Part shown: positions 1,146 through 34,318 of the stretch, one piece after another
Layout: each line of letters starts with the position of its first letter
How positions within the stretch are numbered: the first letter of the stretch is position 1
Virus record (IMG/VR): IMGVR_UViG_3300037506_000042
Coordinates: 1-49,166 of that record
Direction: 5' to 3' (one strand)
Length of the DNA: 49,166 nucleotides
Source of the DNA: a virus
Taxonomy: Duplodnaviria; Caudoviricetes
Program-made: the position numbers and the translations under genes
Notes under the pieces: model-generated
The model's input: the letters and a program-made list of their open reading frames with translations, nothing else
What the model was told of the DNA's origin: nothing
Database searches by the model: none

Positions 1146-2222
1146 TTAACGCGTACCGCTCACAGAGGCCAGACGCGTTTCGGCTTCCTTCAGGTAGTCA
1201 GCATCAATCTCGAAGCCAATAAAGTTGACGCCCAGTCCGGCGCAGGCGAGCGCGGTATTGCCCAGCCCCATAAATGGATCAAGCACGGTCTTGACGCGCT
1301 CTAGCCCATGCAGCCGGATGCACAGCTCTGGGATGCGCGGCGGGAATGTGGCCGGGTGAGGACGCTGTGAATCCCGGCTCTTGATTGTCTTGTAGGGCAC
1401 AAACCAGGTATTGCCACGGCAGCGCACGTCTTGTTTGCGACCCCAGCGCGCGATGTTGCTTTTGTCCTGATATGCTACGCCGATCGCTAGCCTGTCCAGC
1501 TGCACCGTGCCGGTTTTGCTCAGGTGAAAAATATACTCGTGGCAATCATTGACATAGCGCGGGCTGTTGATCGGTTTGAAATGCCCAATGGCAACATCCT
1601 GTGTGATGCCGTCGTAATCGCCGACTTCAGCTTTCTCTATCGCAATCGACTTGATCCAGTGGATCGTGTTTTGCAGGTTGAAGTGCCCGGTCATGACTTG
1701 GAGCACCTGTAGGGGCACCAGCGGATCTGTCGGCTTGGAGCCGATGTTCAGGAACAGCGAGCCGTCGTCTGAGAGCACGCGCTTGGCTTCGGTGGCCCAT
1801 TCATCCAGCCAGAGCAAATAGGACTCGCGCGGCTGATCGTCGCGGTATTTGCCGTAACGCACGCCGAGGTTGTAGGGCGGAGAGGTCACGATCACATCGA
1901 CCGAGCCAGCTTCTAGATCGGCCATGCCATCGAGGCAATCTTCGTTGAGCAAATAGCGGCGGCTGGCGTTGTTCTCCCGGCGCTCAGCGTCGCGTGCGCT
2001 CAAAATTCCGCGCGTTTTTTCTATTGCATCACGCCCGCATTCGCGGATTTCATCTCCGCTCATGCCGGCGGCCTGCGCCGCATTCATCGCATCAAGCACC
2101 GGTCCATAAGCGTTCCATTTCAGCGACTCCTCCTTCAGAGACCTGCATGCGTCGCAATTCTTCGCGCGCTTGCTGGCAAGTTCTGCTCCGCAGTGCTGGC
2201 ATTGATTTGCGGGTGTTGTCAT
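1146..2222 (-). CDS. Beta-class N4/N6 DNA methyltransferase with an N-terminal CxxC..CxxC extension
   Basis: VIVTSPPY catalytic motif precedes HPATFP and VLDPFMGLGNT (SAM binding); about 90 extra N-terminal residues with CQHC and CDAC. Confidence 0.92.
   Translation of the reverse strand: MTTPANQCQHCGAELASKRAKNCDACRSLKEESLKWNAYGPVLDAMNAAQAAGMSGDEIRECGRDAIEKTRGILSARDAERRENNASRRYLLNEDCLDGMADLEAGSVDVIVTSPPYNLGVRYGKYRDDQPRESYLLWLDEWATEAKRVLSDDGSLFLNIGSKPTDPLVPLQVLQVMTGHFNLQNTIHWIKSIAIEKAEVGDYDGITQDVAIGHFKPINSPRYVNDCHEYIFHLSKTGTVQLDRLAIGVAYQDKSNIARWGRKQDVRCRGNTWFVPYKTIKSRDSQRPHPATFPPRIPELCIRLHGLERVKTVLDPFMGLGNTALACAGLGVNFIGFEIDADYLKEAETRLASVSGTR
1178..1276 (+). repeat. 99-bp exact direct repeat, left copy (right copy 49068-49166)
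   Basis: TTTCGGCTTCCTTCAGGTAGTCAG...CCCCATAAATG is identical at both places; a further 9 bp match beyond one mismatch (1177 vs 49067). Confidence 0.97.
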
Positions 2223-2435
2223 GATTTGTTTCTCCTACGCGTTGCTAGTCAAGTTTTAACTTCCGGGCGCGCAAGGTTGCGCACTCGCTCGGCTGTTGGC
2301 GGTTTGCCGGCACTCAATGCAGCAATAAAGCATTGGGCCTCGACGCGTGTAGTGTTCGTCGGGGTGGATCGGGCCGCCGCAGTGATCGCAGATGCCGACG
2401 GGGGCAGATTTTGATCGCATTGCGGCGACCGAACT

Positions 2436-2469
2436 TTTGAAAAAGCCCGGCGCGATGTTGCGCCGGGCT
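2436..2469 (-). terminator. Intrinsic terminator for leftward genes
   Basis: AGCCCGGCGC/GCGCCGGGCT 10-bp stem followed by a T-run on the minus strand, just after the 2479 stop. Confidence 0.7.
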
Positions 2470-2478
2470 GTGGAAGAA

Positions 2479-2769
2479 TCAGATCAGACTGATCCGTCGC
2501 TCGCGTTCCTGGAGTAGGTCCAGGAAAGCTTCTCGCATGTCGAGGTCTATAGAGTAGACCTCTTCTGAAATTTTGAACAAGAGTTGTTGGAACGCATTTG
2601 TGAGGTCATGGTCCACCTCCGCGCTTCCGTCTTTGTCGACGCGCTCAATTTTCTCAGCGCGCCAGTTTAGTTGCACTTGTCGCTCGTCGTTGTAGAGCGC
2701 GTCTTCTACGATGCTCTCATACGCGCGCATTACATGCGCGTACGGGAGCCTCTCTAGATAGAGGTTCAT
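2479..2769 (-). CDS. Small acidic hypothetical early protein
   Basis: 96-aa ORF with AAGGAGAG RBS, collinear with the early operon. Confidence 0.75.
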   Translation of the reverse strand: MNLYLERLPYAHVMRAYESIVEDALYNDERQVQLNWRAEKIERVDKDGSAEVDHDLTNAFQQLLFKISEEVYSIDLDMREAFLDLLQERERRISLI

Positions 2770-2784
2770 TTTATGCTCTCCTTT

Positions 2785-3594
2785 TCATTTTACTAGGTAT
2801 TGACGAGTTCTAAATTCGTCAATCCATCGCAGCGTCATTTCCGCTATGGGTGAGGACGAGGGTGTATCGCCGGGCTCTATGGCAAGGAACCACAACTCTG
2901 CCGGACGGTTCGGGCTGGGGCTGATTCCGACCTCGTTGAGGTCGCATCCACGCACATTTGCAATGGTTCCGATCAGGGATGCGCACTCGCCTCGGTACGC
3001 ATCGCCGTCAATCCGCCCTTCGAGTAGGGCTTGGCGGAGACCGTTTATTTCGTTGGGTGCCTGTGACAGCACCCGCCATAGGTCTCTTTTGATGCCGTTC
3101 ATATTGGCATCTCCAAGATTTGCCCCGCTAAAATCGGCATTGAGTACATTCGCGCGGCCTACTTTTGCGCCTCTGAAATTGGTGTTTCGCGCGCTTGTTT
3201 CGCGCAAGTACGCGTCGGTTAGATCGACGTTGCCGAAATAGGCATCGTCGATCTTAGCGTTTCTAAGATCGACACGGTGAAAGCTTGCGTTTCCCGCCTT
3301 GATTTCACGCATATCTGTTTCTCGCAGATCTGCGCCGTCGAATTTAGCGCCCTCGACATCCGCTCCACGCATATCGACTGCGCGGAACTCAACGTTTTCC
3401 AGGTTCGCTTTGCGGAGCTTTGCTCCGCGAATGTTCTGCTCCTTCAGGGACAGCCATCGAAGGTCGGCGCAGGATAGATCTACGCCTTCTTGAATCGCCT
3501 TTACGACCGCGGCGTTGCGGTCCGGGGCTTCGATTCGGGCAATTACGTGGCCCGAGAACCGGTTTTTTATGACGTTTATCACGGAGTTAATCAC
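2785..3594 (-). CDS. Pentapeptide-repeat protein (probable start GTG at 3582)
   Basis: Tandem A(D/N)L(R/x) pentapeptides (ADLRW, AKLRK, ANLEN, ADLRE, ANLGD) plus a C-terminal globular domain. Confidence 0.9.
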   Translation of the reverse strand: MINSVINVIKNRFSGHVIARIEAPDRNAAVVKAIQEGVDLSCADLRWLSLKEQNIRGAKLRKANLENVEFRAVDMRGADVEGAKFDGADLRETDMREIKAGNASFHRVDLRNAKIDDAYFGNVDLTDAYLRETSARNTNFRGAKVGRANVLNADFSGANLGDANMNGIKRDLWRVLSQAPNEINGLRQALLEGRIDGDAYRGECASLIGTIANVRGCDLNEVGISPSPNRPAELWFLAIEPGDTPSSSPIAEMTLRWIDEFRTRQYLVK

Positions 3595-3827
3595 GTTTCA
3601 ATTGTCGAGCGCGCAAGGTTGCGCACTCGACGCCAGCCAAAATCCTAGCCGCGCGCTCGCTTGGCGCGGTATCTTCTGTTTCGCGCTCAACGCCCTCGGC
3701 GTCTGCGTAGCTGGCGTACCAGCCGCCGTCTTCGACCATGTACGTGCTCAAAGAGAGCGCGATTGCGCAGTCAGCGAGTATGTCAATAAACGCGGAGTTT
3801 GTTACCTCCATTGTTTTGCACACCCAA
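3587..3827 (-). pseudogene. Diverged 3' duplicate of gene 4569-4922
   Basis: 241-bp direct repeat of 4569-4809 (offset 982); both encode WVCKTMEVTNSAFID...EDGGWYA...ERAARILAG. Confidence 0.75.
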
Positions 3828-3858
3828 CGCCGGAGTTGGTTCAGATTGCATCCTCGAA

Positions 3859-3914
3859 CCTGGCGACCCGTCAAGGGACGTTCGCGTTGCTCATTCCCTT
3901 GACGGGTCGCCAGG
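3859..3914. repeat. Perfect 20-bp inverted repeat with 16-nt loop
   Basis: CCTGGCGACCCGTCAAGGGA (3859-3878) and TCCCTTGACGGGTCGCCAGG (3895-3914). Confidence 0.95.
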
Positions 3915-4085
3915 CTCAGGGATACACTGATCAAGTCACGGCGGCCGGTGAAAGAAATCCACAGCCACAATCCGCCGGACAACTATGACGTTTATCACTT
4001 TGATCCTTTTTTGCTGCGCCCCTAAGCGCAGCTTTTAACTGCCGAGCGCACTATTTTGTGCGCTCGGCAGTGTTTCGACCCTTAA

Positions 4086-4523
4086 TTACAGCCACTCCAT
4101 GTGGCTGTATTGAAACTTCATTGGTGGGTCGACCTTGACTTCAATTTCGTTGTCGTTAACGGTCGTGGCGACATTTGGGTTGACCGCCGCCACAATGGCG
4201 GCGGCGACTCTGGCGTCCACGTCGAATGACATGGTCCATTTCTGGACCACGCCCATCGGGCGTGGTCCAGGGACTGAGACAATAACTCCGACCTCTTGGC
4301 GATCACGCATGCGCGCGATCGCTGCGGTTGCCTGTGCCGGCAGCGCTTGAAAGACAAGCGCTGCCTCAAGTTTCTTGGCCTCTTCTAGGAGGCCGTTGAT
4401 AATTCCCACGCACTCTTCAGAGTGCGCAGGGAAGTTGACGGCCTTTTGGCCGACAACCTGGAATTCTTCTCCGACATCGGCCGCGTGGCGGCCGATGATA
4501 AACACCTTCAGTTTATCTTTCAT
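4086..4523 (-). CDS. Hypothetical early protein
   Basis: 145-aa ORF with AAGGAGAAAC RBS, flanked by hairpins at about 4038-4072 and 4547-4568. Confidence 0.8.
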   Translation of the reverse strand: MKDKLKVFIIGRHAADVGEEFQVVGQKAVNFPAHSEECVGIINGLLEEAKKLEAALVFQALPAQATAAIARMRDRQEVGVIVSVPGPRPMGVVQKWTMSFDVDARVAAAIVAAVNPNVATTVNDNEIEVKVDPPMKFQYSHMEWL

Positions 4524-4568
4524 GTTTCTCCTTGTTTTCCTTAACTACCCCCGCGTAATTGCGCGGGG

Positions 4569-4922
4569 TTAATCACGCCTTAACTGTCGAGCGTGAAGCA
4601 TCACGCACTCGATCCCAGCCAAAATCCTCGCCGCGCGCTCGGTCGGCGCGGTGTCGTTTGTCTCGTGCCTCTCGCAGTGTGCCCCTCTATAGGTGGCGTA
4701 CCAGCCACCATCCTCGACCACGAATGCTCTATCGCTGAGCGCGATTGCGCAGTCAGCGAGCATGTCAATAAACGCGGAGTTTGTTACCTCCATTGTTTTG
4801 CACACCCAAGACGTATCTTGGTTTGCAGTTGCGTTGAACTGCACACGAGTTACAATTTTTGCTGCGTTTCGATTGCCGAGCGGGGCGCCAGGACCCCGCT
4901 TAGTTTTTTTTTGACTTCTCAT
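4569..4922 (-). CDS. Hypothetical protein with basic GAPxGNxNA N-terminal motif
   Basis: MRSQKKTKRGPGAPLGNRNAAK; the C-terminal part is duplicated at 3587-3827. Confidence 0.7.
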   Translation of the reverse strand: MRSQKKTKRGPGAPLGNRNAAKIVTRVQFNATANQDTSWVCKTMEVTNSAFIDMLADCAIALSDRAFVVEDGGWYATYRGAHCERHETNDTAPTERAARILAGIECVMLHARQLRRD

Positions 4923-4925
4923 TTT

Positions 4926-5522
4926 TCACCATACGGTGATAACGTTATCGCCGTATTCAATTTTCGGTTTGCCAACTGTCTCTCGCTCGCGTTCTATAAA
5001 TTTGAACGCTTCGTACCCCGAATCGAACGGGCCTTGCACCAACTCGTCTTTCATGGCCCAAGTTCTTATGTGGAAACTTCCTCCTTCGCAAATTACGTAA
5101 ACGTGCCCCTTGGGGGCACGACCCACTGAATATTCGCTGTCCTTCTCGTGCCTATTATCAATTATCTTGCTCACCTTGTGAGCGTCATAGCTTATCTTTC
5201 GTGCATAAATGGCTTTTGCCATTTGATCACCCGTTTTTAATGCGTGTATAAAGCTTACTCCTTGTACTATTGCAGTAGTAAGCTCAACGCAAAACAGAGC
5301 AGCTGCAAACCGCGTTTCTGGGCATGTCAAGCTTTCATCTATTCCTTTTTCAAACTCTTCATATGAGAGTTTGAATGAATTACTCCAGTATTCCATACTG
5401 GGACTTTTGTACATCGGAGTAAGGCCGTACACTCGACATACTTCTGTCGAGTGTTTGCTAATCAAATGATTGTTTTTCAATGCGTAAGATGCAATGTTAT
5501 GCAGAAGCATTTCGTGTTTCAT
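4926..5522 (-). CDS. Hypothetical protein (AT-rich)
   Basis: Long ORF; ATG at 5522 has an AAGGGG RBS. Confidence 0.7.
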   Translation of the reverse strand: MKHEMLLHNIASYALKNNHLISKHSTEVCRVYGLTPMYKSPSMEYWSNSFKLSYEEFEKGIDESLTCPETRFAAALFCVELTTAIVQGVSFIHALKTGDQMAKAIYARKISYDAHKVSKIIDNRHEKDSEYSVGRAPKGHVYVICEGGSFHIRTWAMKDELVQGPFDSGYEAFKFIERERETVGKPKIEYGDNVITVW

Positions 5523-5550
5523 TTTTCCCCTTATTGAACTATACAATTAC

Positions 5551-5590
5551 GCCTACACCTGCTGCGCGAAATAATGCAGCAGGTGTAGGC
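5551..5590. terminator. 15-bp stem hairpin between early genes
   Basis: GCCTACACCTGCTGC and GCAGCAGGTGTAGGC; no clear U-tract. Confidence 0.5.
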
Positions 5591-5624
5591 TGCTTCAAAA
5601 TTCACTATGAAGCGTCTTCGCGCT

Positions 5625-5846
5625 TCATACCCCACCTTTCCAAACGCGCGCCATCCATCCTGCTTTGTAAGCAGCCATGGCAAAGTCTTTCGTCTTCTCG
5701 TCGCAATCCTCAAGTTCAAGGGAAATAATTTCCCCATGGGCTTCAATGAAGCCCCTATCGAAATAATCGTCCCAAAACACTTGCTTCTGAAAGTAATTCA
5801 TGCTTTCAATTGAAAGCACCTTTCCGCTTTTGTCTTTGTATGTCAT
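5625..5846 (-). CDS. Small early protein, paralog of 7604-7918
   Basis: MTYKDKSGKVLSIESMNY resembles MSYTDESGKVISIHEMTY; AAGGAG RBS; directly behind a consensus promoter. Confidence 0.8.
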   Translation of the reverse strand: MTYKDKSGKVLSIESMNYFQKQVFWDDYFDRGFIEAHGEIISLELEDCDEKTKDFAMAAYKAGWMARVWKGGV

Positions 5847-5883
5847 AACTGCTCCTTAAGTGAACCCTTGCTTGCTGCATTGA

Positions 5884-5911
5884 ATTATACACAAAACAAT
5901 CCAACTGTCAA
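5884..5911 (-). promoter_or_regulatory. Sigma70-type early promoter
   Basis: TTGACA-16 bp-TATAAT; lies in a ~61-bp block (5880-5941) repeated at 6490-6550. Confidence 0.85.
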
Positions 5912-5954
5912 CTACCGAAGCAAAAAATACGCATAAATGCGATGAAAATGCGCT

Positions 5955-6098
5955 TCATCTAAGACGCACGCGTTTAGCTTTGGTGCCTGGTTCATCCAGC
6001 CAGAGAAAATAGAACTTGCGCGGCCGAGCGAATTCCGCTGCGTTTCGATTGCCGAGCGGGGCTCCAGGACCGCTCGGCTTTTTGACTTTCCGACTCAC
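5955..6098 (-). CDS. 47-aa chimeric ORF (GAPLGNRNAA motif fused to an MTase-derived fragment)
   Basis: Manual translation MSRKVKKPSGPGAPLGNRNAAEFARPRKFYFLWLDEPGTKAKRVRLR; halves resemble 4861-4895 and 1768-1833. Confidence 0.5.
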   Translation of the reverse strand: MSRKVKKPSGPGAPLGNRNAAEFARPRKFYFLWLDEPGTKAKRVRLR

Positions 6099-6099
6099 A

Positions 6100-6486
6100 C
6101 TATTCTTCCCCCCTCTTAAATGCTGTTACAAGCCTTGTTGGGCGGAACATGTCGCCATCGCCAGCATCTGCCTGGTCGATGTAAACGCCCTCCCAAATTG
6201 TGACCAGATCGCCACCGCCGTAGCCAACGTGGAAGCCCTCGCGGAGGGCTTCGCGGCACTCGGCTTCGTCGTTATACATTCCAAATCCGCACAATCCAGC
6301 GTTGGCCAAGCGCCAGCGCCCATCCGAGCAGCGCACCGGCTCGCCTTTCAGGTCGAGGTCCTTTTTTGTCTCGACCGCCTCTCTTTTCGAGGCGAAGTCC
6401 ATATACAACACGTAGCTGCGCTTGTCGCGCAAGTCGCGTTTAAGTTGAGCTTCGTTTGCAACAAATCGGATAAAGTAGCTGGTCAC
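6100..6486 (-). CDS. Hypothetical early protein, probably leaderless GTG start
   Basis: In-frame part of ORF 6100-6675; GTG lies 7 nt after the -10 box. Confidence 0.65.
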   Translation of the reverse strand: MTSYFIRFVANEAQLKRDLRDKRSYVLYMDFASKREAVETKKDLDLKGEPVRCSDGRWRLANAGLCGFGMYNDEAECREALREGFHVGYGGGDLVTIWEGVYIDQADAGDGDMFRPTRLVTAFKRGEE

Positions 6487-6493
6487 AAATTGA

Positions 6494-6521
6494 ATTATAC
6501 ACAAAACAATCCAACTGTCAA
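6494..6521 (-). promoter_or_regulatory. Sigma70-type early promoter, second copy
   Basis: TTGACA-16-TATAAT, identical to 5884-5911. Confidence 0.85.
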
Positions 6522-6650
6522 CTACCGAAGCAAAAATACGCATAAATGCGTAGATGCGTATAGATGAGCGGTGCAAAGATACCGCTCGCGTCGCAGCGTC
6601 GTAGCGTGTCGTAGAACACCAAAACGTTATCACTTCTGATAATGATATTA

Positions 6651-6857
6651 TCAGAAGTAGTTTTTGTTTTCGCACGCAGCTGCCGCTTTGCCCCCTTTGT
6701 CAAACTTTGCGCCGTGCAGATCTGCACCTCGCAGATCTGCACAACGAAAATCAGCTAATTCAGCAACAGCAATTTCAACCGCAGTCTTCATGCTGTCTGC
6801 GTATGTTTCAAAAATAACAGCTCCGGTACACTTGTTACGAATTGTGACCTTCACCAT
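6651..6857 (-). CDS. Short or truncated pentapeptide-repeat protein
   Basis: MVKVTIRNKCTGAVIFE...ADFRCADLRGADLHGAKF; N-terminus resembles 2785-3594; GGAG RBS. Confidence 0.7.
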   Translation of the reverse strand: MVKVTIRNKCTGAVIFETYADSMKTAVEIAVAELADFRCADLRGADLHGAKFDKGGKAAAACENKNYF

Positions 6858-6927
6858 TTGTAAAACTTGCTCCGTTTTTCTTCCTTGACTGGAAGACTGC
6901 AATTCCAATGCGCCAATGACGTTCGGG

Positions 6928-6956
6928 TTGCGGCTCTAAGACGATATGGCTATAAT
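6928..6956 (+). promoter_or_regulatory. Putative CRISPR-array promoter
   Basis: TTGCGG-17 bp-TATAAT, 130 bp upstream of the first repeat and pointing into the array. Confidence 0.65.
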
Positions 6957-7086
6957 CTGGGGGTTGAGCCCTTTCGTGGGGATTCGACTCCGCCGGAATT
7001 GCCTTGATGTGAGAGTTAGGCGCAATTCCGGCGAAATCGTTTTCCCTACGGCTGTTGCTGAACTTGAACAGGAATTCCAACAGGAA

Positions 7087-7632
7087 GCGTTGGCTCAATC
7101 GATCCGGTGGCGGATACTGAAACCGCTGCGCACCCAACTGAACATGTCACAGGAAGTGCGGCGTTGGCTCAATCGATCCGGTGGCGGATACTGAAACATG
7201 CCGCAATCGCTGACGACACGATCAAACGCGACCGCGTTGGCTCAATCGATCCGGTGGCGGATACTGAAACTGCGCAGCGTCAATGCGCGCCTGAGCACAA
7301 TTCGAAGCGTTGGCTCAATCGATCCGGTGGCGGATACTGAAACGCGCGTCGGCGGCTGGTCTGGCTGGCGACTACAGGCGTTGGCTCAATCGATCCGGTG
7401 GCGGATACTGAAACAACACACGATTTTGTTGACCTTTACAAAATCGGTCGGCGTTGGCTCAATCGATCCGGTGGCGGATACTGAAACTCATAGTTGAAAC
7501 TTCTAGTAATAAACGAAACGCCGCGTTGGCTCAATCGATCCGGTGGCGGATACTGAAACGAAATTGGATGTCGGGTTTGCTCATGCTCACACCGTGCGTT
7601 GGCTCAATCGATCCGGTGGCGGATACTGAAAC
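7087..7632 (+). CRISPR. cas-less CRISPR mini-array: 8 identical 37-bp repeats, 7 spacers of 34-37 bp
   Basis: GCGTTGGCTCAATCGATCCGGTGGCGGATACTGAAAC at 7087, 7161, 7234, 7307, 7378, 7451, 7523, 7596; internal ATCCG-GTGG-CGGAT hairpin and ACTGAAAC 3' end typical of Cas6-processed class 1 repeats. Confidence 0.98.
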
Positions 7633-7918
7633 TTGCTTCGTCAAGAGACTCGCACCATTCTTGCCATCCCCTTGAGTATTCCTCACTTGCTGCATTTATG
7701 GTATCTTCATCTGCTTCTTCGAACATATCCGAATCGTCGATGTTTTGTTTGATTCGCTCTAAGCTTGGAAGAATTCCGTCAAATAGTTCCCCAAGATTTT
7801 TATTATCGTCCGCATCTTGAAAGCCAAAGCTTCGAAAATGCTCGCGAAACTCACGTTCTTGCACATACGTCATTTCATGAATTGAAATGACTTTCCCGCT
7901 TTCGTCTGTGTAGCTCAT
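7604..7918 (-). CDS. Small acidic early protein whose stop codon lies inside the last CRISPR repeat
   Basis: AAGGAGAA RBS, own promoter, D/E-rich (DDSDMFEEADED), paralog of 5625-5846. Confidence 0.8.
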   Translation of the reverse strand: MSYTDESGKVISIHEMTYVQEREFREHFRSFGFQDADDNKNLGELFDGILPSLERIKQNIDDSDMFEEADEDTINAASEEYSRGWQEWCESLDEASFSIRHRID

Positions 7919-7947
7919 AGTTCTCCTTGAAATTAACCTTGAATTGA

Positions 7948-7975
7948 ATTGTATGCAAAACAATCATTCTGTCAA
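7948..7975 (-). promoter_or_regulatory. Sigma70-type early promoter, third diverged copy
   Basis: GGTAG-TTGACA-16-TACAAT-TCAA, same flanks as the other two copies. Confidence 0.8.
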
Positions 7976-8138
7976 CTACCAGTGACCAAAATCAGACTAA
8001 ATACGTAGACGGCATGCGTGCGATAATGCCATCTGTGGCGTATCCGGCATCGTCGGCGCGGGTTAATCAACGTCCGCAAGTCGCCACAAAGCGCCGAACG
8101 CAAGCAGCGCGCGCAAAACCGCTACGCTGTCTGATTCG

Positions 8139-8327
8139 TCAAGAACGAGCTTGCGCCGCGCAAGTTCGTCGATGCGTTTGCTCCTGCGGCGCTTGGTCTT
8201 GGCTGTCATTCGATGCTATTCCCACAGCGCGCGCTGCATGTTGCGCTCGACTGACAAGCCGATGTATGCAGCAATGCACGCTGTTATCAGCCAGCGGTAT
8301 GCGCATCGCATTTGCGTTAACGATCAT
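8139..8327 (-). pseudogene. N-terminal remnant of a DNA methyltransferase
   Basis: MIVNANAMRIPLADNSVHCCI resembles the MTase start that normally continues into TSPPY; similarity stops there. Confidence 0.5.
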
Positions 8328-8380
8328 TTCTTGATGTGCATCTGTGTGTCCGATAAGGGGAAGTTATCGGACAACTAGAC

Positions 8381-8417
8381 GCGTTGGCTCAATCGATCCG
8401 GTGGCGGATACTGAAAC
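8381..8417 (+). CRISPR. Solitary perfect CRISPR repeat
   Basis: 37/37 identical to the array repeat, 748 bp after the last array repeat; preceded by a TGTCCGATAA/TTATCGGACA hairpin (8347-8373). Confidence 0.95.
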
Positions 8418-8603
8418 GGCACGCACGGTGAATCCGTAGGCGCAAGTACGTATCCCGGCATGATCGTTGGGCGCGGTTGTTCCGGCGGCTTGGGCGTCAG
8501 CAACGTCGATGTGATTGGCGAGAGTAGCGGCGCAACAGCGCGGCGGTCCTTGTCATACCAGCGCATACGCTGCGCGTTAAGGGGAGGCACGCAGCGCAAA
8601 TAC

Positions 8604-9350
8604 CTATGCTGGCTCTCCGGGGGCCTCTTTCGCCGCGGCGATTGCGATCTGCAACGCCGATTTCGCCGCGGTGCGCTCAGCCTGCGTGCTGCTGCCGTTC
8701 TTGCGTAGCACCTCGCGGGCCAGCGCCTGCGCGATGCTAATCTCCGTGGCAACCTCCACGGTCGCGTCGCGCGCAAGTTCACCAGCGGCCTTGCCGAGGG
8801 CGATCATTTCTGCCTTCCACTCGGAATCACGCGAGTGAAAAGCCTGGGCGTTTCCGCGTGCAACCGGTGTCAGTTCGCTGAACGGCTGCGCGTCACTGAT
8901 CGTTTCTACCTCGGTCTCATCCAGCATTCCCAGACCGCAAATACTCAGTGTTACGCGCCGCTTGGCTTTAGTTACCGCTTTCATGATGGCGTTGGCGACG
9001 TTGCCCTGCATGTCCCCGCGCTTCACCACGCCGACATCAGAATCTCCGCGCCCGGTTTTGTCGCGCGCCTCAATCGTGACAATGATGAGGTCGTCCTGAA
9101 ATTGGATGTCGGGTTTGCTCATGCTCACACCGTGAATGTTGCGCAACTGGTCTGTGCAATCCTTGCGCGCATACAGCGTGAGTTTGCCGTTTAGCCAAAT
9201 GTAGTCAAAAGGCTTTGTCATCGGGTTAAGGCCAAGTGATTCGCACGTACGCAGGTAATACGCCGCGCGCTCCTCGGATGACAGTTTGCCCAGGTCGCCC
9301 ATTATTAGCACCTGCTGCATGATTTCGCTCTTTGACAATTCGTTTCCCAC
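8604..9350 (-). CDS. Single-strand annealing recombinase (RecT/Red-beta-like)
   Basis: CESLGLNPMTKPFDYI...MKAVTKAKRRVTLSICGLGMLDETE pattern; GTG start with AGGAG RBS (ORF track starts at 9377). Confidence 0.7.
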   Translation of the reverse strand: MGNELSKSEIMQQVLIMGDLGKLSSEERAAYYLRTCESLGLNPMTKPFDYIWLNGKLTLYARKDCTDQLRNIHGVSMSKPDIQFQDDLIIVTIEARDKTGRGDSDVGVVKRGDMQGNVANAIMKAVTKAKRRVTLSICGLGMLDETEVETISDAQPFSELTPVARGNAQAFHSRDSEWKAEMIALGKAAGELARDATVEVATEISIAQALAREVLRKNGSSTQAERTAAKSALQIAIAAAKEAPGEPA

Positions 9351-9458
9351 GTCTTGTTTCTCCTGTGTTTTGTCCAATTCGCCGCAAGCGCCGCGCGTAG
9401 AGACTCATCAGCCTCTATAAACGCGCGCTTCGCATCAAGCTACATATCTAGAAACAAC

Positions 9459-9731
9459 TTATAAAATACAAACCACCACAAACGCGATAAGCGCAAATCC
9501 AAATAGCGCGACAAGAAAGCGCATATGCTTGTTCCCGCGCTTTCGCGCGGGAACCTGACGCCACCCCAACATCTTCTGTTGCTGAATGCCGAGCGCGCGA
9601 ATTCTTTCCGCGCGCTCCTCTCTAACTATTTGCGACAATGCTGCTTGTGCCAGCATCAACGAGAACTGAACCTGTGCTTGGCTTTCGCTCTCGCCCACAT
9701 ATTCCCCGCCCCCGTGCTTAAGCATTTGCAT
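9459..9731 (-). CDS. Small membrane-anchored protein
   Basis: GGAGG RBS; hydrophobic C-terminus FLVALFGFALIAFVVVCIL. Confidence 0.65.
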   Translation of the reverse strand: MQMLKHGGGEYVGESESQAQVQFSLMLAQAALSQIVREERAERIRALGIQQQKMLGWRQVPARKRGNKHMRFLVALFGFALIAFVVVCIL

Positions 9732-10473
9732 TTCCTCCGTGCTGCGCCTGGCGCTCAGTGAGCGCCCAGGCGGACTCTCGCTTAGCCTGCCACTCTGCGT
9801 ACTCAGCAACACACTGAGTACTCAAACTATCAATTAACTCGCGTATTCGCAATGAATAATTAATATCGTTCGCATAAACACTAGGTGCGTGTCTCCGAGT
9901 GACCACGGCATCGAGTTGCGAAACAATCGATTTTGCTGCATGTTCGCCCTCGACGGTCAAAAACCGTTTGCGCTTTACGGGCGAGTAAGACAGGTAGCCC
10001 GGGCCGGCTGTTCTGTCATACTTACAAGTTTCCATATCGTAAGCCAAGCCCCAAACAAAAGCCCCGTTGTCCCCTACTGGGAAGCTTGAGGATACGATTT
10101 CTGGAACACTTATGCGCACGCTGTTTTCAATTAGGTATGCCATCAAAATCGCCTTTTGCGCTGTGCTAATTTTTGCACACGCACGGCGATCAATAATAAA
10201 TCCGTGCCTTGTACTGGTAGCGACCTGAATTAGATCGGGAATATCTAATACTGTAATACGCCTTATCAAACAATTTGCCGCGTCTTCCGGATCTGAGATA
10301 TACGCGATGATTTCGCCTGACAAATAACCATCGTGTATGGAAACCTCCTGGCCGCCTCGAATATCGCGCCAGTCGTCATACGACATTTCCGCGACGATTT
10401 TTTTTTCCGCCGCTGCGCGCTCCCACGCAGAAGCTGCGTTTTCAGACAACACTTTGTAATACCCCTTTTTCAT
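9718..10473 (-). CDS. Hypothetical protein
   Basis: 251-aa ORF collinear with neighbours. Confidence 0.7.
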   Translation of the reverse strand: MKKGYYKVLSENAASAWERAAAEKKIVAEMSYDDWRDIRGGQEVSIHDGYLSGEIIAYISDPEDAANCLIRRITVLDIPDLIQVATSTRHGFIIDRRACAKISTAQKAILMAYLIENSVRISVPEIVSSSFPVGDNGAFVWGLAYDMETCKYDRTAGPGYLSYSPVKRKRFLTVEGEHAAKSIVSQLDAVVTRRHAPSVYANDINYSLRIRELIDSLSTQCVAEYAEWQAKRESAWALTERQAQHGGNANA

Positions 10474-10494
10474 ATTTACCGCGCTTGCAACATG

Positions 10495-10851
10495 TTACCG
10501 CTTGTTCTGCTCAACAAACTTAATTAGTGACGAACAAAACGCGATTTGCGCGCTTTCTTCGTCAAAACCAACATAGTCTCCGCCTACATGCAATCCTTGA
10601 TTGCAGTAAGCCTTCACAAAATCAAAAGCAACGCGATCCGATACGTGTCCAGCTTCGTTACCGCGTCCAAGCGCACGCCGCACGTATTTCAACGCGCCTT
10701 CGCAAGGATTTACAACATTGAAATCCTTGCCACCAACGCTACACAAAATCGACCTACCGCCTCCATATTTTTCGTATATCATTAGCCTTGCCATACGCGC
10801 GTCGCATTCGTCGCTTAACACGCGACGATGAAACCTTTTTACCGCATTCAT
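10495..10851 (-). CDS. Hypothetical protein, first gene of the leftward operon
   Basis: 118-aa ORF starting 20 bp behind the leftward promoter. Confidence 0.65.
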   Translation of the reverse strand: MNAVKRFHRRVLSDECDARMARLMIYEKYGGGRSILCSVGGKDFNVVNPCEGALKYVRRALGRGNEAGHVSDRVAFDFVKAYCNQGLHVGGDYVGFDEESAQIAFCSSLIKFVEQNKR

Positions 10852-15630: not shown

Positions 15631-15716
15631 AATTGTGAAAAATTTGTCTGGAACTGCCTGGGAACCGCTAGGGAACCGCAAAAAATCGTTCCCGGAACTT
15701 GGAACCTTTTTAGTTT

Positions 15717-15753
15717 GTTTCAGTATCCGCCACCGGATCGATTTAGCCAACGC
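15717..15753 (-). CRISPR. Solitary CRISPR repeat (36/37)
   Basis: GTTTCAGTATCCGCCACCGGATCGATTTAGCCAACGC, reverse complement of the array repeat with one mismatch at 15744. Confidence 0.95.
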
Positions 15754-15782
15754 CCGCGCGTGTTGGCCCGCAGGAGTTGGGC

Positions 15783-15925
15783 CGCAGGCGTTGGCCCGCG
15801 AGGTGCTACGCAAGAACGGCAGCAGCTCTCAGACTGAGCGCACCGAGGCGAAATCGGCGTTGCAGGCCGCAATCGCCGCGGCGAAAGAGGCCCCCGGAGA
15901 GCCAGCATAGGTATTTGCGCTGCGT
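15783..15925 (+). pseudogene. Inverted 143-bp copy of the 3' end of the recombinase gene (8589-8731)
   Basis: About 7 mismatches; both encode QALAREVLRKNGSS...AAAKEAPGEPA*. Confidence 0.9.
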
Positions 15926-16016
15926 ATGCATCGCGCGCCGTGCGCGCTGCTTGCACGGGTTGCTCGCGGCAAGCAGAAAGCACCTGCATCTATATATGTA
16001 GCGCTACGGAGATTTT

Positions 16017-16490
16017 ATGTTGTCAAGCGACTTGGCCGACCGCGTATTCAGTGGCGAGTTTCACAACGAATCGGACTGCGAAAAGTTGCACGGACTGATT
16101 ACGGAGATGGCGAGCTGGATCAGTGATGCGCAAACTCACATGGCCGACATTGAAAGTGCGCCGCATGCGATCTACTTGCAGGTCCGCGGCGAAAATGTCG
16201 CACTGCTGGGTGTTGACGGACCAGTAGATTGGAACGATAGCGAAGTGACTTGGTGCACGGTTCGCGTTTTTGATTCTGACGTTCAGTATGTCAAGGCGTC
16301 GGTGCTCAAAGAGCAGGCGGCCGAAGTCGCCAGACTAAACCGCGCGCTCGACATCTGCCTGAAAGAGTTGTTGGCAATCTCGCGGCTCGATAACCAGTCG
16401 GACACTTGGGATCTGTATCACGCAGCCAAGCAGGGTCCGATCATCGCGCGCCGTGCGATTGCCGCCCAGGCGGAGGCACGCACCGCATGA
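16017..16490 (+). CDS. Hypothetical protein carried between two CRISPR repeats
   Basis: 157-aa ORF with GGAG RBS; C-terminal helical region. Confidence 0.75.
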   Translation: MLSSDLADRVFSGEFHNESDCEKLHGLITEMASWISDAQTHMADIESAPHAIYLQVRGENVALLGVDGPVDWNDSEVTWCTVRVFDSDVQYVKASVLKEQAAEVARLNRALDICLKELLAISRLDNQSDTWDLYHAAKQGPIIARRAIAAQAEARTA

Positions 16491-16646
16491 TCCGCCTCGT
16501 GCTGTTAGTTCTGGCCGCGCTAACACTCACTACGCCCGTCAACCGAGACGCCACAGCCGACAGCGATCGTGATCTCCATCGCGCCAACAAAAACACCCAT
16601 GCCGACATCGACACAGACCAGCACGCCAACTCCTGCGGGATGCTAA
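16487..16646 (+). pseudogene. Frameshifted exported Pro/Thr-rich protein
   Basis: MIRLVLLVLAALTL signal in one frame; RPSTETPQPTAIVISIAPTKTPMPTSTQTSTPTPAGC* in another. Confidence 0.55.
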
Positions 16647-16652
16647 TCTGCA

Positions 16653-16689
16653 GTTTCAGTATCCGCCACCGGATCAATTGAGCCAACGC
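16653..16689 (-). CRISPR. Solitary CRISPR repeat (36/37) next to an AT-rich leader-like region
   Basis: GTTTCAGTATCCGCCACCGGATCAATTGAGCCAACGC, one mismatch at 16676. Confidence 0.95.
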
Positions 16690-16823
16690 TTTTTAGTTTT
16701 AGCGTAAATTCTCCAATGACGACCGGAAAAAATAGCACTGGCGCCATATTTTCCCCAAATGTAATTGCACGCTAAAACAAAATTGCGTTGTGATGACATA
16801 TTTTTGATTTTTGCATTTATAAT

Positions 16824-21811: not shown

Positions 21812-23239
21812 ATGGCACTAATCACAGATCCCGATTTACTCGAAGACTCCGTAGCTGACGATGGATCGCAGGAGGTGTATATAAACACCACTGCAAAGAC
21901 TATCAAGCTAAACACTGTCGGCAACCTTTCTTCTGATGGCGTGACAATGAAAGCGCTGTATTCATTTTTGAAGGAAGAATGGCGACAAGATACAAACTTA
22001 AAAAATCTGGCAGCTTTCCCGTTTCCGATCACATCAATTACTGATGAATCGTTTGAGTTTATCGATGGTTGGGACTTTTTGAACGATGCGTCAAGGTATT
22101 TGATTCGCAGCGCAGGATGGACTGTTGTAAACACCGCAGGAAATGTAACGCAAAAATGGGCGGGTATTATCGGTCTAGGTGTAATCGAGTCTAACGATCA
22201 ATTGTATTTTCAGCAGTCAGCAAATGGCGCAGCGGTAAACGCTCAATTGCTAGGTCAAATCAACCAGTCTGTGCAAATATTGAGCGACCCGAACGGAGAC
22301 GGAGATTACTCTGACGGATATGACAAACGTTCTTACCTAAAACTGTTTGTTCGAGAACAAGGTCAAATATACAGCGTTGCGCAACTGTCTGATATCGGCG
22401 TTTCGCAGCTTTCTTCGCAAGCGTATCGGTTCCCAATTGCAACTGGCTTCGATTTGAAGGTAACGCACTCCGATACTCAAATTGACGCAAACTCAGACGG
22501 CACTGCAGACGTTGCGCCTTATAGCGGAATGTCGATTACGTATTACTCAACTCCGCAGGTTAGAAATATCGGCGGAACTAACAGAAATTTTGGCATTATC
22601 ATCAACGGTAACAACGCAACAGCAGAGCAGATTTACGAATTTGTGCAATGGAGCTTGAGAAAGAACTCAGACATAGACGCAGGTTCTGGTACAGTTATTG
22701 GTAAAACCGCTGACGCTCTACTGCAATTTGTCGACGACACGTTGAAAACAAAAAACGCAAACAATCCTTCCGGCGGAGGCTCTGGCGTGTTTATCGACAA
22801 CTATCAAACAGTTGATATTAACCGTTTGGTGTTTCTTGACAATACTGCAACTGAAAGAACGTATCCGTATGTTGCAGCGCTTACTATCAATTTTGGAGCA
22901 AACCTTGTAGCAGATCCTGATGCAAAATACTGGGTATATTTCACAAACCTACCTGGATCTGGTAACGATTACGGCGAGTCTGGCGCAGTATTGGTAGATG
23001 ACAACGCGTCTTCAGACATGACAGGGAACGTATCTGGCGTTTCGTTTATTACTAGAAGTTTCAACTATGACGGCAACACGCAAGGCGGTAGAACGCCTGG
23101 TACAGATGCGGCAATAACGGTTGTCGGCATCGGTTTAAGCACTGGTCAGTACGTTAGAACAACAGGCGTTATTCAACGTAGCACTTCTAACAGTGTCTCT
23201 CTTGTTTCTGCTCTTGAGAGAAACTACGCAAATCCATAA
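21812..23239 (+). CDS. Putative virion structural protein, perfect target of spacer 6
   Basis: 475 aa, G/S/T/N-rich beta-type composition; GAGG RBS. Confidence 0.7.
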   Translation: MALITDPDLLEDSVADDGSQEVYINTTAKTIKLNTVGNLSSDGVTMKALYSFLKEEWRQDTNLKNLAAFPFPITSITDESFEFIDGWDFLNDASRYLIRSAGWTVVNTAGNVTQKWAGIIGLGVIESNDQLYFQQSANGAAVNAQLLGQINQSVQILSDPNGDGDYSDGYDKRSYLKLFVREQGQIYSVAQLSDIGVSQLSSQAYRFPIATGFDLKVTHSDTQIDANSDGTADVAPYSGMSITYYSTPQVRNIGGTNRNFGIIINGNNATAEQIYEFVQWSLRKNSDIDAGSGTVIGKTADALLQFVDDTLKTKNANNPSGGGSGVFIDNYQTVDINRLVFLDNTATERTYPYVAALTINFGANLVADPDAKYWVYFTNLPGSGNDYGESGAVLVDDNASSDMTGNVSGVSFITRSFNYDGNTQGGRTPGTDAAITVVGIGLSTGQYVRTTGVIQRSTSNSVSLVSALERNYANP

Positions 23240-28125: not shown

Positions 28126-28714
28126 CCAAACGCTTTTGAAAAAAGTGCAAATTCGCATGTCCGCGCTAAAAGAGGTGCGAGCGCCGGTTGTTTTAGAAAC
28201 GCATGGCGGAATAGGGAGTGTGTACCGAAGGTGCTACAGCGACGCAAAGGGTGTTGTTTTCGAGAAAGACCCAAAAAAGACTGAAATGCTTGCGTCTCAA
28301 CGTCCATCGTGGCGCGTTTATGAGTGCGACTGCGTAGAGGCAATCAACGCCGGCGTGTGCGGCGAAACGGTATTTAATATGATTGACATTGACCCGTACG
28401 GTCAGTGCTGGCCGGTTATAGATGCCGTGTTTGGCCAAGGAGTAAAAATGGCCGACAGGACCGCAATAGTTGTCAACTGCGGGTTGAGACAAAATCTAAA
28501 AATGGGAACCGCTTGGAATGCGAAGTCAATGCAATGGGCGGTCACGAAATACGGGAATGCGCATGTGTATGGACAATACTTGGACATTTGCAGGGAAGCA
28601 ATGGAAAATAAAGCAGCGCAGGCCGGGTATAGCCTGCGCCGCTGGGCTGGGTATCACTGTGGTGTTGGTGGAAACATGACGCACTTCCTTGCGGTGATCG
28701 AAAAAACTCAATGA
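28112..28714 (+). CDS. Class I SAM-dependent methyltransferase-like protein
   Basis: VLETHGGIG (motif I-like), VFEKD, MIDIDPYG (motif IV-like). Confidence 0.65.
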   Translation: MQQDNQTLLKKVQIRMSALKEVRAPVVLETHGGIGSVYRRCYSDAKGVVFEKDPKKTEMLASQRPSWRVYECDCVEAINAGVCGETVFNMIDIDPYGQCWPVIDAVFGQGVKMADRTAIVVNCGLRQNLKMGTAWNAKSMQWAVTKYGNAHVYGQYLDICREAMENKAAQAGYSLRRWAGYHCGVGGNMTHFLAVIEKTQ

Positions 28715-29529
28715 TGCTGCTGAATGTATTTCGGGTTGTAGTAACCATCAGGGAGATATTTTTGCAAATCCTTCTTGATGTAGTGCTTCACGCCCAAGTG
28801 CTGCACAAGCTCTACGATTCGATTAGTGTAGCTTTCCCAATCTGTTGTTTTGGTCATGCCGACATAGTTTACGCGACCGATTTTGTAAAGGTCAACAAAA
28901 TGGTGCGTTTGGCGAATGATTTCGAGGCTGGCGTCACAGTCAAGCGTGGGTTCAAGGCTGACCCACGTAAATACACCCGCCTCGTGAAACTTGCGCAGCG
29001 TGTCGATACGGTCGCCGGGAAGCGCCGCGCCGCGCTCCCACTTCATGCTGAAATCGTCGTCCAAGCTTGTCAGCGTGGACGCGAAGGCGTCGCGGTCGGG
29101 GCGAAACATGTCGATGTCACGAAGCGCGCGGGAAGCGCCCTTCGTGAGAGTGCAAATGCTCATGTTGTGTTCTTGCAGGATACGCAAAACTTCGCGCGTT
29201 GGTCTGTTATCGCCGGGGTGATACGGATCAGTCGTGAAACTGAGCATAACCTGCTCATTGATGTTTCGAGCCTGATATTTGCGCGCATCTTTGCGCAAAA
29301 GGTCCAGAAAACCGGGGCGGTCATTCGCGCCGGTGTCAAACTCGGCGCGGTCCATTTTCAAAATCTTAGGCACGTAGCAATACGCGCACTTGTGCCCGCA
29401 CCCGCGATACGGGTTGGTGGCGAGCTTGGCGTATTCGCCCGCTTGCCCGCGCGGGGCGTATATGATGCTGCATCCAGGAACCTGATACTGGTCATTTGTC
29501 ATTTCTTCGGTTTTTGTCGGTGTTTTCAT
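28708..29529 (-). CDS. Radical SAM protein (spore-photoproduct-lyase-like family), near-perfect target of spacer 5
   Basis: NPYRGCGHKCAYCY (CxxxCxxC), TDPY, LTK, TWVSLEP. Confidence 0.9.
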   Translation of the reverse strand: MKTPTKTEEMTNDQYQVPGCSIIYAPRGQAGEYAKLATNPYRGCGHKCAYCYVPKILKMDRAEFDTGANDRPGFLDLLRKDARKYQARNINEQVMLSFTTDPYHPGDNRPTREVLRILQEHNMSICTLTKGASRALRDIDMFRPDRDAFASTLTSLDDDFSMKWERGAALPGDRIDTLRKFHEAGVFTWVSLEPTLDCDASLEIIRQTHHFVDLYKIGRVNYVGMTKTTDWESYTNRIVELVQHLGVKHYIKKDLQKYLPDGYYNPKYIQQHH

Positions 29530-29701
29530 TTTGGATTTCCCTATCAATTAACTGACGAAGCGCTTGCGAAATGTTTCGCGAGCGGGACAAGAGGAACTCG
29601 ATGTGAGACGCAAGAAGCGCAACGGTTACTCGTACCACGCGCACGTCCTCCGAAATGCGCGGGCGTCCGGCGCCGGGCCTTTGCCCGCCACGTTTACCCA
29701 T
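29492..29701 (-). CDS. Small DNA-binding protein (RGGxRxGAGRP motif plus ribbon-helix-helix-like region)
   Basis: MGKRGGQRPGAGRP...VRVTVALL...NISQALRQLID; leaderless start 6 nt after the -10 box. Confidence 0.7.
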   Translation of the reverse strand: MGKRGGQRPGAGRPRISEDVRVVRVTVALLASHIEFLLSRSRNISQALRQLIDREIQNENTDKNRRNDK

Positions 29702-29735: not shown

Positions 29736-30205
29736 TAGAAAATGGCGGAAAGCGCGAAAAGAGCGCGAAAAGGGCAAAAAGAGCACATAAAAAAGGTGTT
29801 GATGACGCGCCACGCGTGAATGACCAGCAGGCGGAGTCCGAGCGCAAGCGCGAGACGTTTTTGGAAGTGCTGCGCAAAACATCAAACGTGCGTTTGGCGT
29901 GCATGGCTGCTAATCTAAGCCGCGGCCTAGTTTATCAGTGGCGTGATGACATGCCGGAATTTCGCGACGCGTGGAAGGAGGCCCGCGCGCATGCTTGCGA
30001 CATTCTGGAAATGGAGGCATGGAGGCGCGCAACGCGTGAAAGCAACCCTAGCGACACGCTGCTTATATTCCTCCTAAAAGCCCACAGACCGCGAAAGTTT
30101 CGCGAGAACTTAAGACACGAGATTACCGGCAAAGCGGGGGGGGCTATTGCCGTTAATGTCAGCATGGAAAATGCCCTATTGAAGGTCTACGGAGATGAAG
30201 ACTAA
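29729..30205 (+). CDS. terS: Terminase small subunit
   Basis: FLEVL...NVRLAC..ANLSRGLVYQWR...F...W; LEMEAWRRA; SDTLLIFLLKAHRP.KFRE; directly upstream of terL. Confidence 0.85.
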   Translation: MSIENGGKREKSAKRAKRAHKKGVDDAPRVNDQQAESERKRETFLEVLRKTSNVRLACMAANLSRGLVYQWRDDMPEFRDAWKEARAHACDILEMEAWRRATRESNPSDTLLIFLLKAHRPRKFRENLRHEITGKAGGAIAVNVSMENALLKVYGDED

Positions 30206-31595: not shown

Positions 31596-31603
31596 GAACA
31601 TAC

Positions 31604-33091: not shown

Positions 33092-33959
33092 GCACGAGCG
33101 GTCGGTAAAGAACGCGGAAAAGGCCGGCGATGAGCTTGCAATTCTGTTTGCGAGCATCGGCTCAGTGTCGCGGCCTACTGGCGAGTTGTTCACTTCGTAC
33201 CGCAACGCGCGCAGAGCGCTACGTGCAGCCATTGCGGACGCTGTAGCCGCGCGGTCGATTATGACCACGCTGGTAGAGGATGTGCGGCGCATCGTCGAGA
33301 CAATTCTGAGGCGCGCGGCGGACATTGGAGACGCGCAGTCGCGCGTTGACGCTGATGTATGGGGACTGAACTTCACCCCTTCTTTTCTTGATTCAAACGT
33401 GCTTGCGGAGAGCGTAGACGCTATCACGCTACAGACTGAGTCACAACGCGCACAGGTCTTGGCGGCCGTGCGCGCGGGCAGTGCAACTGCGCCTCAACTA
33501 TTGGGCGCTAATGGGTCGCTTGGTATGGTGACGCCGGCACCTATCGCGCTTGGCCTTACGCGCGCCGCAGTGAGCACTCACGCATACGCATATCACGAAT
33601 CGGTAACACAGTCAATTGAGAACACTCCGGGGCGCATGGTGGGGCAATACGTGCGCCAAGCTGTCGCGGCAATTGACGCAAAGACAACTGATTGCTGCTT
33701 GCGCGTGCATGGACAGACCGCGCCGATTGACGGTATGTTCACGCTGACAGGAACGCCGAAATTCGCCGACCGACTAGCGTATCCGCCGTTCCATTGGAGA
33801 TGCAGGACGGCCACGGCGCTTGTTTTTAAGTCTTTGGAGAACGATTCGCTAACGCAGCGCATGATTGCAAGCGCAAAGGCTGAGCGAGCGGCACGAGATG
33901 CCGGCGGGTCTACGCAAGGCAGATACACAAACGCATTTTCAGGAGGTGGCAGAACATGA
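33084..33959 (+). CDS. Minor head morphogenesis protein (SPP1 gp7/Mu gpF-like)
   Basis: D.KTTDCCLRVHG...PPFHWRCRT. Confidence 0.85.
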   Translation: MDEHERSVKNAEKAGDELAILFASIGSVSRPTGELFTSYRNARRALRAAIADAVAARSIMTTLVEDVRRIVETILRRAADIGDAQSRVDADVWGLNFTPSFLDSNVLAESVDAITLQTESQRAQVLAAVRAGSATAPQLLGANGSLGMVTPAPIALGLTRAAVSTHAYAYHESVTQSIENTPGRMVGQYVRQAVAAIDAKTTDCCLRVHGQTAPIDGMFTLTGTPKFADRLAYPPFHWRCRTATALVFKSLENDSLTQRMIASAKAERAARDAGGSTQGRYTNAFSGGGRT

Positions 33960-34271: not shown

Positions 34272-34318
34272 TTTTTGTTTTTCCCCATTGCGTGATGCAG
34301 TGGGGCAGGCGGGACGCC

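Follow-up and report, generated by a model that had tools for sequence, protein, structure and literature searches.

The virus record analyzed here, a stretch of 49,166 nt that is called the window in the following, contains a CRISPR array without cas genes, and two of its spacers match genes of the same phage exactly and next to intact PAMs. The observation is real and against expectation, and it is known from one record of a freshwater phage and one contig-level run. In the literature covered here, viral mini-arrays are described to avoid self-targeting (PMC6858448, PMC11656645, PMC7099407). The array block was probably captured by the phage from the host's own anti-phage array. The whole chain, i.e., capture followed by a tolerance that may be based on decoys, is proposed tentatively and has somewhat less than an even chance of being correct.

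The record was classified as linear and estimated to be 54% complete by CheckV. Genes for terminase, portal, capsid and tape-measure proteins are present (Pfam, PHROGs). The genes at 1146-10851 are directed leftward, and from about 10.8 kb onward the direction is rightward, with the exception of the radical SAM gene. Positions 1163-1276 recur at 49053-49166, so that the record ends overlap, and this sequence repeat suggests a circle of about 47.9 kb. An earlier note on this DNA had called the array cas-less, and indeed no cas gene was detected among 49 ORFs with PADLOC or among 55 ORFs with Pfam and PHROGs. The features are listed in Table 1.

Table 1. Features of the array region, the solitary repeats and the protospacers in the window.
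Feature	Position	Strand	Description
Promoter-like site	6928-6956	+	9/12, consensus match only; perfect -10; faces the array
Hairpin RNA-like element	6960-7052	+	93 nt, irregular; directly before spacer 0; kept in the putative sibling element
Spacer 0	7053-7086	+	34/34 to tape-measure gene; no repeat before it
CRISPR array	7087-7632	+	8 identical 37-nt repeats, 7 spacers of 34-37 nt
Acidic early gene	7604-7918	-	104 aa, pI 4.28, net charge -17
Near-consensus promoter	7948-7975	-	11/12; predicted to transcribe the acidic gene and to run on into the array, antisense to it
Solitary repeat	8381-8417	+	Exact; preceded by a hairpin (8348-8372)
RAD52/Sak-like single-strand annealing protein	8604-9377	-	About 1 kb from the array; holds protospacer 7
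Protospacer 7	9098-9133	+	36/36 to spacer 7 (7560-7595); PAM CCT; in RAD52/Sak-like annealing gene
Solitary repeat	15717-15753	-	1 mismatch; terminator-like hairpin after it
Inverted copy of annealing gene 3' end (8589-8731)	15783-15925	-	143 nt, 95% identical; 29 nt from solitary repeat
Solitary repeat	16653-16689	-	1 mismatch
Protospacer 6	23036-23070	-	35/35 to spacer 6 (7488-7522); PAM CCG; in 475-aa gene of late region (21812-23239)
Protospacer 5	28874-28909	-	34/36 to spacer 5 (7415-7450); PAM CCA; in radical SAM gene
Protospacer 0	42560-42593	-	In tape-measure gene

The array has the characteristics of type I arrays, i.e., regular, identical repeats, unique spacers, and a repeat in which a folded 5-bp hairpin precedes an 8-nt handle. 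Its orientation was taken from host arrays, which are situated after cas4 in the orientation of the plus strand of the window. Including the three solitary repeats, 11 repeats are present at four separate loci, which may reflect only two or three events, and all 11 are antisense to the local genes. The unit after the repeat at 16653 is spacer-like: its next 37 nt match the annealing gene (8710-8746) at 26 of 37 positions behind a CCA, a value that none of 300 shuffled sequences reached. The region around the two solitary repeats on the minus strand (15680-16700) looks like a rearrangement scar. The two repeats (15717, 16653) are separated by 899 nt; at a distance of 13 nt from either end this segment contains a 14-nt inverted repeat, and on their outer sides both repeats are flanked by a 10-nt direct repeat. 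A small Pro/Thr-rich ORF at 16489 ends in the repeat and seems to be frameshifted.

Three self-matching spacers had been reported in the earlier note, and all three are real, while the self-match of spacer 0 and the three solitary repeats had been missed. The positions, strands, identities and 5' flanks given for spacers 5, 6 and 7 were confirmed (Table 1), including the mismatches of spacer 5 at positions 4 and 8 and the dissimilar 3' flanks. The E-values of BLAST searches within the window were 1.5e-8, 9.9e-11 and 8.1e-12 for spacers 5, 6 and 7, respectively. CC makes up 0.043 of the dinucleotide positions, and three CC flanks in three cases would be expected by chance with a probability of about 8e-5. 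Spacer 0 is an exact match to the tape-measure gene (E 3.5e-10). Its protospacer is flanked by CCT only at a 37-nt register, i.e., if 3 nt of the spacer were lost; because several registers are allowed, this remnant is suggestive, not strong. A length of 37 nt is common for spacers of this repeat family (407 of 1922). Taken together, self-matches with the PAM of the family or its remnant were found for four of the eight spacer-like units. Spacers 1-4 had no target in the window, in 309 fetched loci or in further target searches; their GC content is higher (0.58-0.74 versus 0.49), and they may target other elements.

The radical SAM gene was confirmed on the minus strand (28708-29547), and spacer 5 is thus sense, while spacers 6 and 7 are antisense to their mRNAs, as had been claimed. 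The gene of protospacer 7 had been labeled a recombinase, and this is supported by the RAD52-like fold of its product. For 21812-23239, which had been labeled a virion gene, no family match at E<=0.001 was obtained; relatives are present in 17 viral loci. The claim that the self-targets are intact and flanked by PAMs holds for spacers 6 and 7. It does not hold for spacer 5, at which the phage side is changed at two PAM-proximal positions. One of these differences is silent, and the other replaces Asp by His. The codon at spacer position 8 is one for Asp in the spacer and one for His in the phage, and among 119 homologues the residue is Glu in 92, Asp in 2 and His in none. Because the spacer has kept the family-type acidic codon and His is absent from the homologues, the comparison is clear in direction: the phage side appears to have changed, as in escape from a host spacer. 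The phage radical SAM protein departs from the consensus at 19 of 201 conserved columns, and such departures are thus not rare. The two differences were also considered as a built terminator, and this was not supported, because the hairpin folds about equally well in the protospacer (-11.6 versus -10.6 kcal/mol). Only two spacers are disarmed, namely spacer 0, which is without a 5' handle, and spacer 5, which has the two PAM-proximal mismatches and a self-hairpin. The self-avoidance of carriers of viral mini-arrays is not seen here, because spacers 6 and 7 match exactly next to CCG and CCT.

A pattern from the 3' half of the repeat was used to collect related repeats, and at least 120 loci were found. 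Among the matches listed, the multi-repeat loci were titled Chloroflexota, with four exceptions (L020, L091, L039, L119). Effector genes were present beside family repeats in 7 of 17 loci (93 of 141 ORFs scanned), i.e., four I-B Cst, one I-A-like and two I-D, and the repeat family is thus found beside type I cas operons. Thirteen of 1922 unique host spacers matched fetched non-array sequences with at most seven mismatches, and the flanks of the best matches were CCC (6), CCT (2), GCC (2), CTC (2) and CAC (1). Therefore, the CCN-type PAM proposed earlier is borne out for the repeat family in 8 of 13 cases in related I-B arrays; all 13 spacers stem from three Herpetosiphon arrays, two of which are beside I-B Cst operons, and their repeats differ at many positions. 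CCN is listed for types I-A and I-B (PMC8482600), and the CCN PAMs of the window protospacers look genuine. Judged by its repeat, the array is of type I and belongs to a Chloroflexota repeat family, and we infer a Chloroflexota host with a type I-B-like system. Two points stand against this best reading: the PAM was drawn from Herpetosiphon arrays and repeats of this family are also used by I-D and I-A-like effectors, and a host array with the exact repeat was not found in the collections searched. The exact repeat had no match in viral, genome and metagenome collections, the repeat was not present within three mismatches in 401 Chloroflexota genomes, 8 of 401 genomes of the class gave only related repeats, and the five supplementary files of PMC8482600 that were searched do not contain it.

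Close relatives of the phage were limited to one locus (L125, 99.98% identical to 29784-34849), which covers neither the array nor the protospacers, and the best other relatives of the annealing protein are 57-73% identical. The Chloroflexota-family repeat was absent from loci L125-L309. With the queries used, 301 genomes gave no match to the terminase, and 401 genomes gave none to the acidic gene. The viral contig L004 begins (1-240) with three family repeats that run straight into a long phage ORF; this could stem from a capture of the same kind or from a mis-join of spacer and protospacer. CC/GG dinucleotides are depleted in 1163-49052 of the window, with an odds ratio of 0.70 versus a median of 0.91 for 95 fetched phage loci larger than 10 kb, four of which are even lower. 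The depletion may be PAM avoidance or a trait of the lineage.

Capture of a host array is favored, because four of the eight spacer-like units match the carrier, as the anti-phage memory of a host would. It is also favored because the array starts inside a spacer, has no host-type leader and replaces the tail of a real phage gene at its right end. The escape-like change in the target of spacer 5 points in this direction as well. The region upstream of the array was not ranked by a profile, a motif or a matrix derived from 19 host leaders. Short motifs had hinted at a host-leader origin of 6900-7052, and the profile and the matrix gave no support. At the right end, the last 10 codons and the stop codon of the acidic gene are supplied by the last repeat. 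Nine matches of its product were found in the protein library, and eight were aligned. The closest homologue (62%) agrees up to the repeat edge, where 14 unrelated residues follow. One guess, made from this one protein, is a spacer-protospacer crossover at 7633-7669: if the codons that were lost were the same as in this homologue, the present position of the repeat could have been occupied by a CCT.

Another argument for capture is the RAD52-like protein 1 kb from the array together with the duplicated piece of its gene, which starts in a spacer-like match, i.e., inside the region of the annealing gene that is matched by the unit at 16653. The model of the annealing protein (pLDDT 90.6) folds like RAD52, Mgm101, Red-beta and Sak (best E 8.7e-4). 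The source would have been a block of a host type I array with spacers acquired against this phage lineage. Short identities, either repeat-repeat or spacer-protospacer, could have been annealed by the neighboring RAD52/Sak-like protein, and a leaderless run of repeats and spacers would thereby have been brought in. Leaderless phage arrays are thought to arise by recombination (PMC6858448). A route with the repeat as attachment site would be without its enzyme, because no match to a tyrosine or large serine recombinase was found in the window, although the record may be incomplete.

Recombinational capture of spacer-repeat units is known from phage phiAP1.1 (Varble et al., 10.1101/2020.10.09.333658), and recombination between spacer and protospacer has been attributed to Varble 2019, as cited in the same paper and in PMC10608574. 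In phiAP1.1, too, host spacer-repeat units enter a phage by recombination, and the survival of that phage in spite of matching spacers depends on an anti-CRISPR. In contrast, the array described here is of type I and not II-A, no integrase was found, 11 repeats are spread over four loci, and it is apparently the majority form in a natural sample. It resembles the mini-arrays of SPV1 and SPV2 (Medvedeva et al. 2019, PMC6858448; review PMC11656645) in being a cas-less viral array with a host-type repeat, spacers against its own lineage and stand-alone repeats. The archaeal mini-arrays have a host-type leader, whereas the phage array is without one by profile.

A further argument stems from the contigs of one public run, which may be the source sample; contigs only were available, and these were graph-simplified (10.1101/2024.07.30.605881). 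The long phage contigs have depths of 14.6-17.7. A second element with a depth of 8-10 is present as well, with which the 3' part of the methylase gene (about 25.7 = 16 + 9.6) and the hairpin at 6952-7039 (26.1 = 15.8 + 10.5) are shared. After 7049 this element continues as a 3483-nt contig that is unbroken by the exact repeat, and this favors capture, the array being, as we infer, an insertion specific to this phage. Another contig of the second element has 5246 nt, compared to 5335 nt between the same points in the window. This suggests a colinear sibling element beside the NHL gene, the contigs being linked by depth and length only. The first 1.1 kb of the record encode an NHL-repeat protein with cellular relatives. 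The methylase gene has two alternative continuations, the end of the NHL-repeat gene (depth 9.6) and the circular junction (1-1676, 49053-49166). The first 1.2 kb of the record probably belong to a sibling prophage or the host and may be a join between two elements via the common methylase stretch of 500 nt.

The earlier note had named a mis-joined host array as a possible error. Both ends of the array join phage DNA at phage depth: the contig from the upstream flank to spacer 0 has a depth of 16.9, that from spacer 0 to the repeat 16.6, and one contig with a depth of 15.3 connects the last repeat, via 7633-8380, with the solitary repeat at 8381. The interior was not recovered, i.e., spacers 1-7 were not present as contigs in this one run. 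It is unlikely, but to be taken seriously, that the interior is an artefact, in that most molecules have no more than spacer 0 with a single repeat or a few of them, and that spacers 1-6 or 1-7 stem from a host array or a minor form. The missing contigs would agree with this, as would long contigs that are unbroken at protospacers 6 and 7 and stop at protospacer 0, the apparent join in the first 1.2 kb (NHL gene, depth 9.6), which indicates that the assembly can cross between elements, and the surplus depth of the repeat. The latter is about 399, compared to about 140 predicted from nine copies, and because of this excess other carriers of the exact repeat are present in the sample, a point that also speaks for capture. 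However, short paths next to repeats were lost in general. The gap at spacers 1-7 was treated as uninformative, because the same graph-simplified contigs do not contain 8411-8692 either, another stretch adjacent to a repeat. In addition, a 37-nt repeat alone should not mislead an assembler that uses longer words, the array is joined to phage DNA at phage depth on either side, and the replacement of a gene end does not result from assembly. A mixed population, in which one strain has escaped and carries the array and another has no array, had been named as another refutation; it fits poorly, because protospacers 6 and 7 are unmutated in the contigs. Long contigs run through both at the depth of a single phage (one ends at protospacer 0), no letter differs at protospacer 7, and the alignment of a 26.8-kb contig with spacer 6 extends over 35 nt.

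Because spacers 6 and 7 keep PAM-flanked targets, interference must be blocked, or the guides are not made; of the options listed earlier, a block of interference is supported to this extent. It is rather unlikely that the array is a silent passenger, i.e., a recent capture without function, in which the strong early promoter, directed leftward, prevails over sense transcription and few guides are made. The identity of all eight repeats would fit, and so would a promoter of 11/12 into the array against 9/12 in sense, and the antisense position of all repeats, an orientation that avoids the cutting of mRNAs by Cas6. On the other hand, repeats are present at four separate loci, and identical direct repeats so close to an annealing protein should soon be lost if they were of no use. 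The -10 of the sense promoter is perfect, and that of the second element, which differs at the first base of the hexamer (6951), is weaker.

If the captured array is transcribed in sense, host Cas6 would process the RNA to guides, and the phage could be the target of two of them. In the Racr systems, solitary repeats and non-targeting crRNAs act as inhibitors by competing (Camara-Wilpert et al. 2023, PMC10651486). In the manner of such RNA anti-CRISPRs, decoys for Cas6/Cas7 could be provided by the first RNA, consisting of hairpin, spacer 0 and repeat without a handle, by the solitary repeats and by the guides of the four non-self spacers. Decoys of repeat RNA are preferred, because the first RNA would lack the handle like the active part of RacrIF1, and because non-targeting crRNAs also compete. 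As in the inhibitory part of RacrIF1, the first array RNA is predicted to run from the promoter to the Cas6 site without a 5' handle, and, as in Racr loci, solitary repeats of host type are present, three in this case. Racr candidates have a sense promoter within about 250 nt. Here, a 9/12 site lies 160 nt before the first array repeat, an 8/12 site lies about 290 nt before 16689, and no sense promoter was found for the solitary repeats at 8381 and 15753. Unlike Racr, the phage also has a multi-spacer, self-matching array, and the searched text of PMC10651486 contains no I-B Racr. The hairpin in front of spacer 0 belongs to no Rfam family, and two pattern matches were due to chance. The 5' end of its RNA can form 9 bp with the first repeat, which is too short for a tracrRNA-like role. 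Against the proposed tolerance, two perfect guides made at the copy number of a phage may be too much for competition alone.

Help could perhaps come from the acidic early protein or from a resident sibling prophage. No known anti-CRISPR was identified in the phage, and the acidic 104-aa protein is an anti-CRISPR candidate by position and charge only. It resembles the charge profile of AcrIB2 (PMC10732046). Its model (pLDDT 85) gave no Foldseek match at E<=0.001 (best Z 6.0) and no known anti-CRISPR fold, the Atlas contained no match, and a match to locus L374 was spurious. Consensus promoters and hairpin units, which are predicted to drive small leftward early genes, recur at 5879-5926, 6489-6536 and 7943-7990 and in 2246-4611, and the first 25 residues are common to 5625-5846 and 7604-7918. 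The region of small early genes is a candidate region for host takeover or anti-defence. At 5955-6085 a non-coding 76-nt copy (80%) of the methylase (1765-1839) is followed by a terminator-like hairpin that recurs at 4861-4895, and it is possibly an antisense RNA. At 3824-4791 the depth is reduced to 10.6, and loose ends are present at positions 3824 and 3984, which suggests variants of the early region around a 246-nt repeat pair.

The leftward promoter could also matter in another way. RNA from the early promoter at 7975 might be complementary to anti-phage crRNAs of the host and neutralize them, and self-matching spacers would then be selected. Such an antisense decoy is quite unlikely; if true, it would be a sequence-specific RNA anti-CRISPR made from the host's own CRISPR memory. 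The gene at 7918-7604 has its end in the last repeat, transcription beyond it would enter spacers 7, 6 and 5, these self-matching spacers are nearest to the promoter, all 11 repeats are antisense to local genes, and spacer 5 contains a terminator-like hairpin on the leftward strand. However, this hairpin was inherited from the protospacer and not built, about 5.6 terminator-like sites are expected by chance in the region, and the orientation of the repeats, counted over loci that may represent two or three events, is equally well explained by avoidance of Cas6 cutting.

The other two options of the earlier note fared worse. Policing of close relatives, in which the array borrows the host Cascade against related phages and the carrier is shielded by DNA modification or timing, is very unlikely. 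In its favor, viral mini-arrays usually have this role (PMC6858448, PMC11656645), the sample appears to contain a colinear sibling element, a DNA methylase gene is found in the phage, and the GC-richer spacers 1-4 may be directed at other elements. Yet published arrays avoid self-targets by mutation (PMC6858448), whereas perfect matches give no discrimination between self and non-self. No second element shares the sites of spacers 6 and 7 exactly, as judged from the single depth and the unbroken contigs, and spacers 1-4 have no target found.

Repression of phage genes by guide-loaded host Cascade without cutting is highly improbable: spacers 0, 6 and 7 are complementary to the mRNAs of the tape-measure, late and annealing genes, but three of four antisense spacers are not beyond chance, spacers of types I-A and I-B lean to antisense anyway (PMC8482600), the target of spacer 5 bears an escape-like change, and the targets are full-length matches in the middle of genes (residues 1001-1012 of 1276, 409-420 of 475 and 82-94 of 257) and not seed-limited promoter matches like those of promoter-directed crRNA-like RNAs (10.1101/2024.10.29.618823). 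The Cracr systems (Liu et al., same preprint) are similar in that a multi-unit phage array could compete for Cas proteins. Their guides match promoters of cas or toxin genes and copy regulatory RNAs of the host (for crRNA-like RNAs that regulate cas genes see also 10.1101/2023.03.03.530964), whereas the array described here has perfect repeats and full-length spacers to phage genes.

A model of viral mini-arrays assumes that an identical match inactivates the virus (PMC7099407). In the literature searched, outside of which are subscription journals, neither a cas-less phage array with exact, PAM-flanked self-targets nor an antisense array decoy was found. Two such self-targets at majority frequency are a pointer to an uncharacterised block on the type I immunity of Chloroflexota. 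Candidates for this block are the three solitary repeats, the handle-less first RNA, the antisense transcript and the acidic early protein. The array would also be a natural snapshot of the capture of a host array, a process that until now has been shown mainly in laboratory streptococci and staphylococci.
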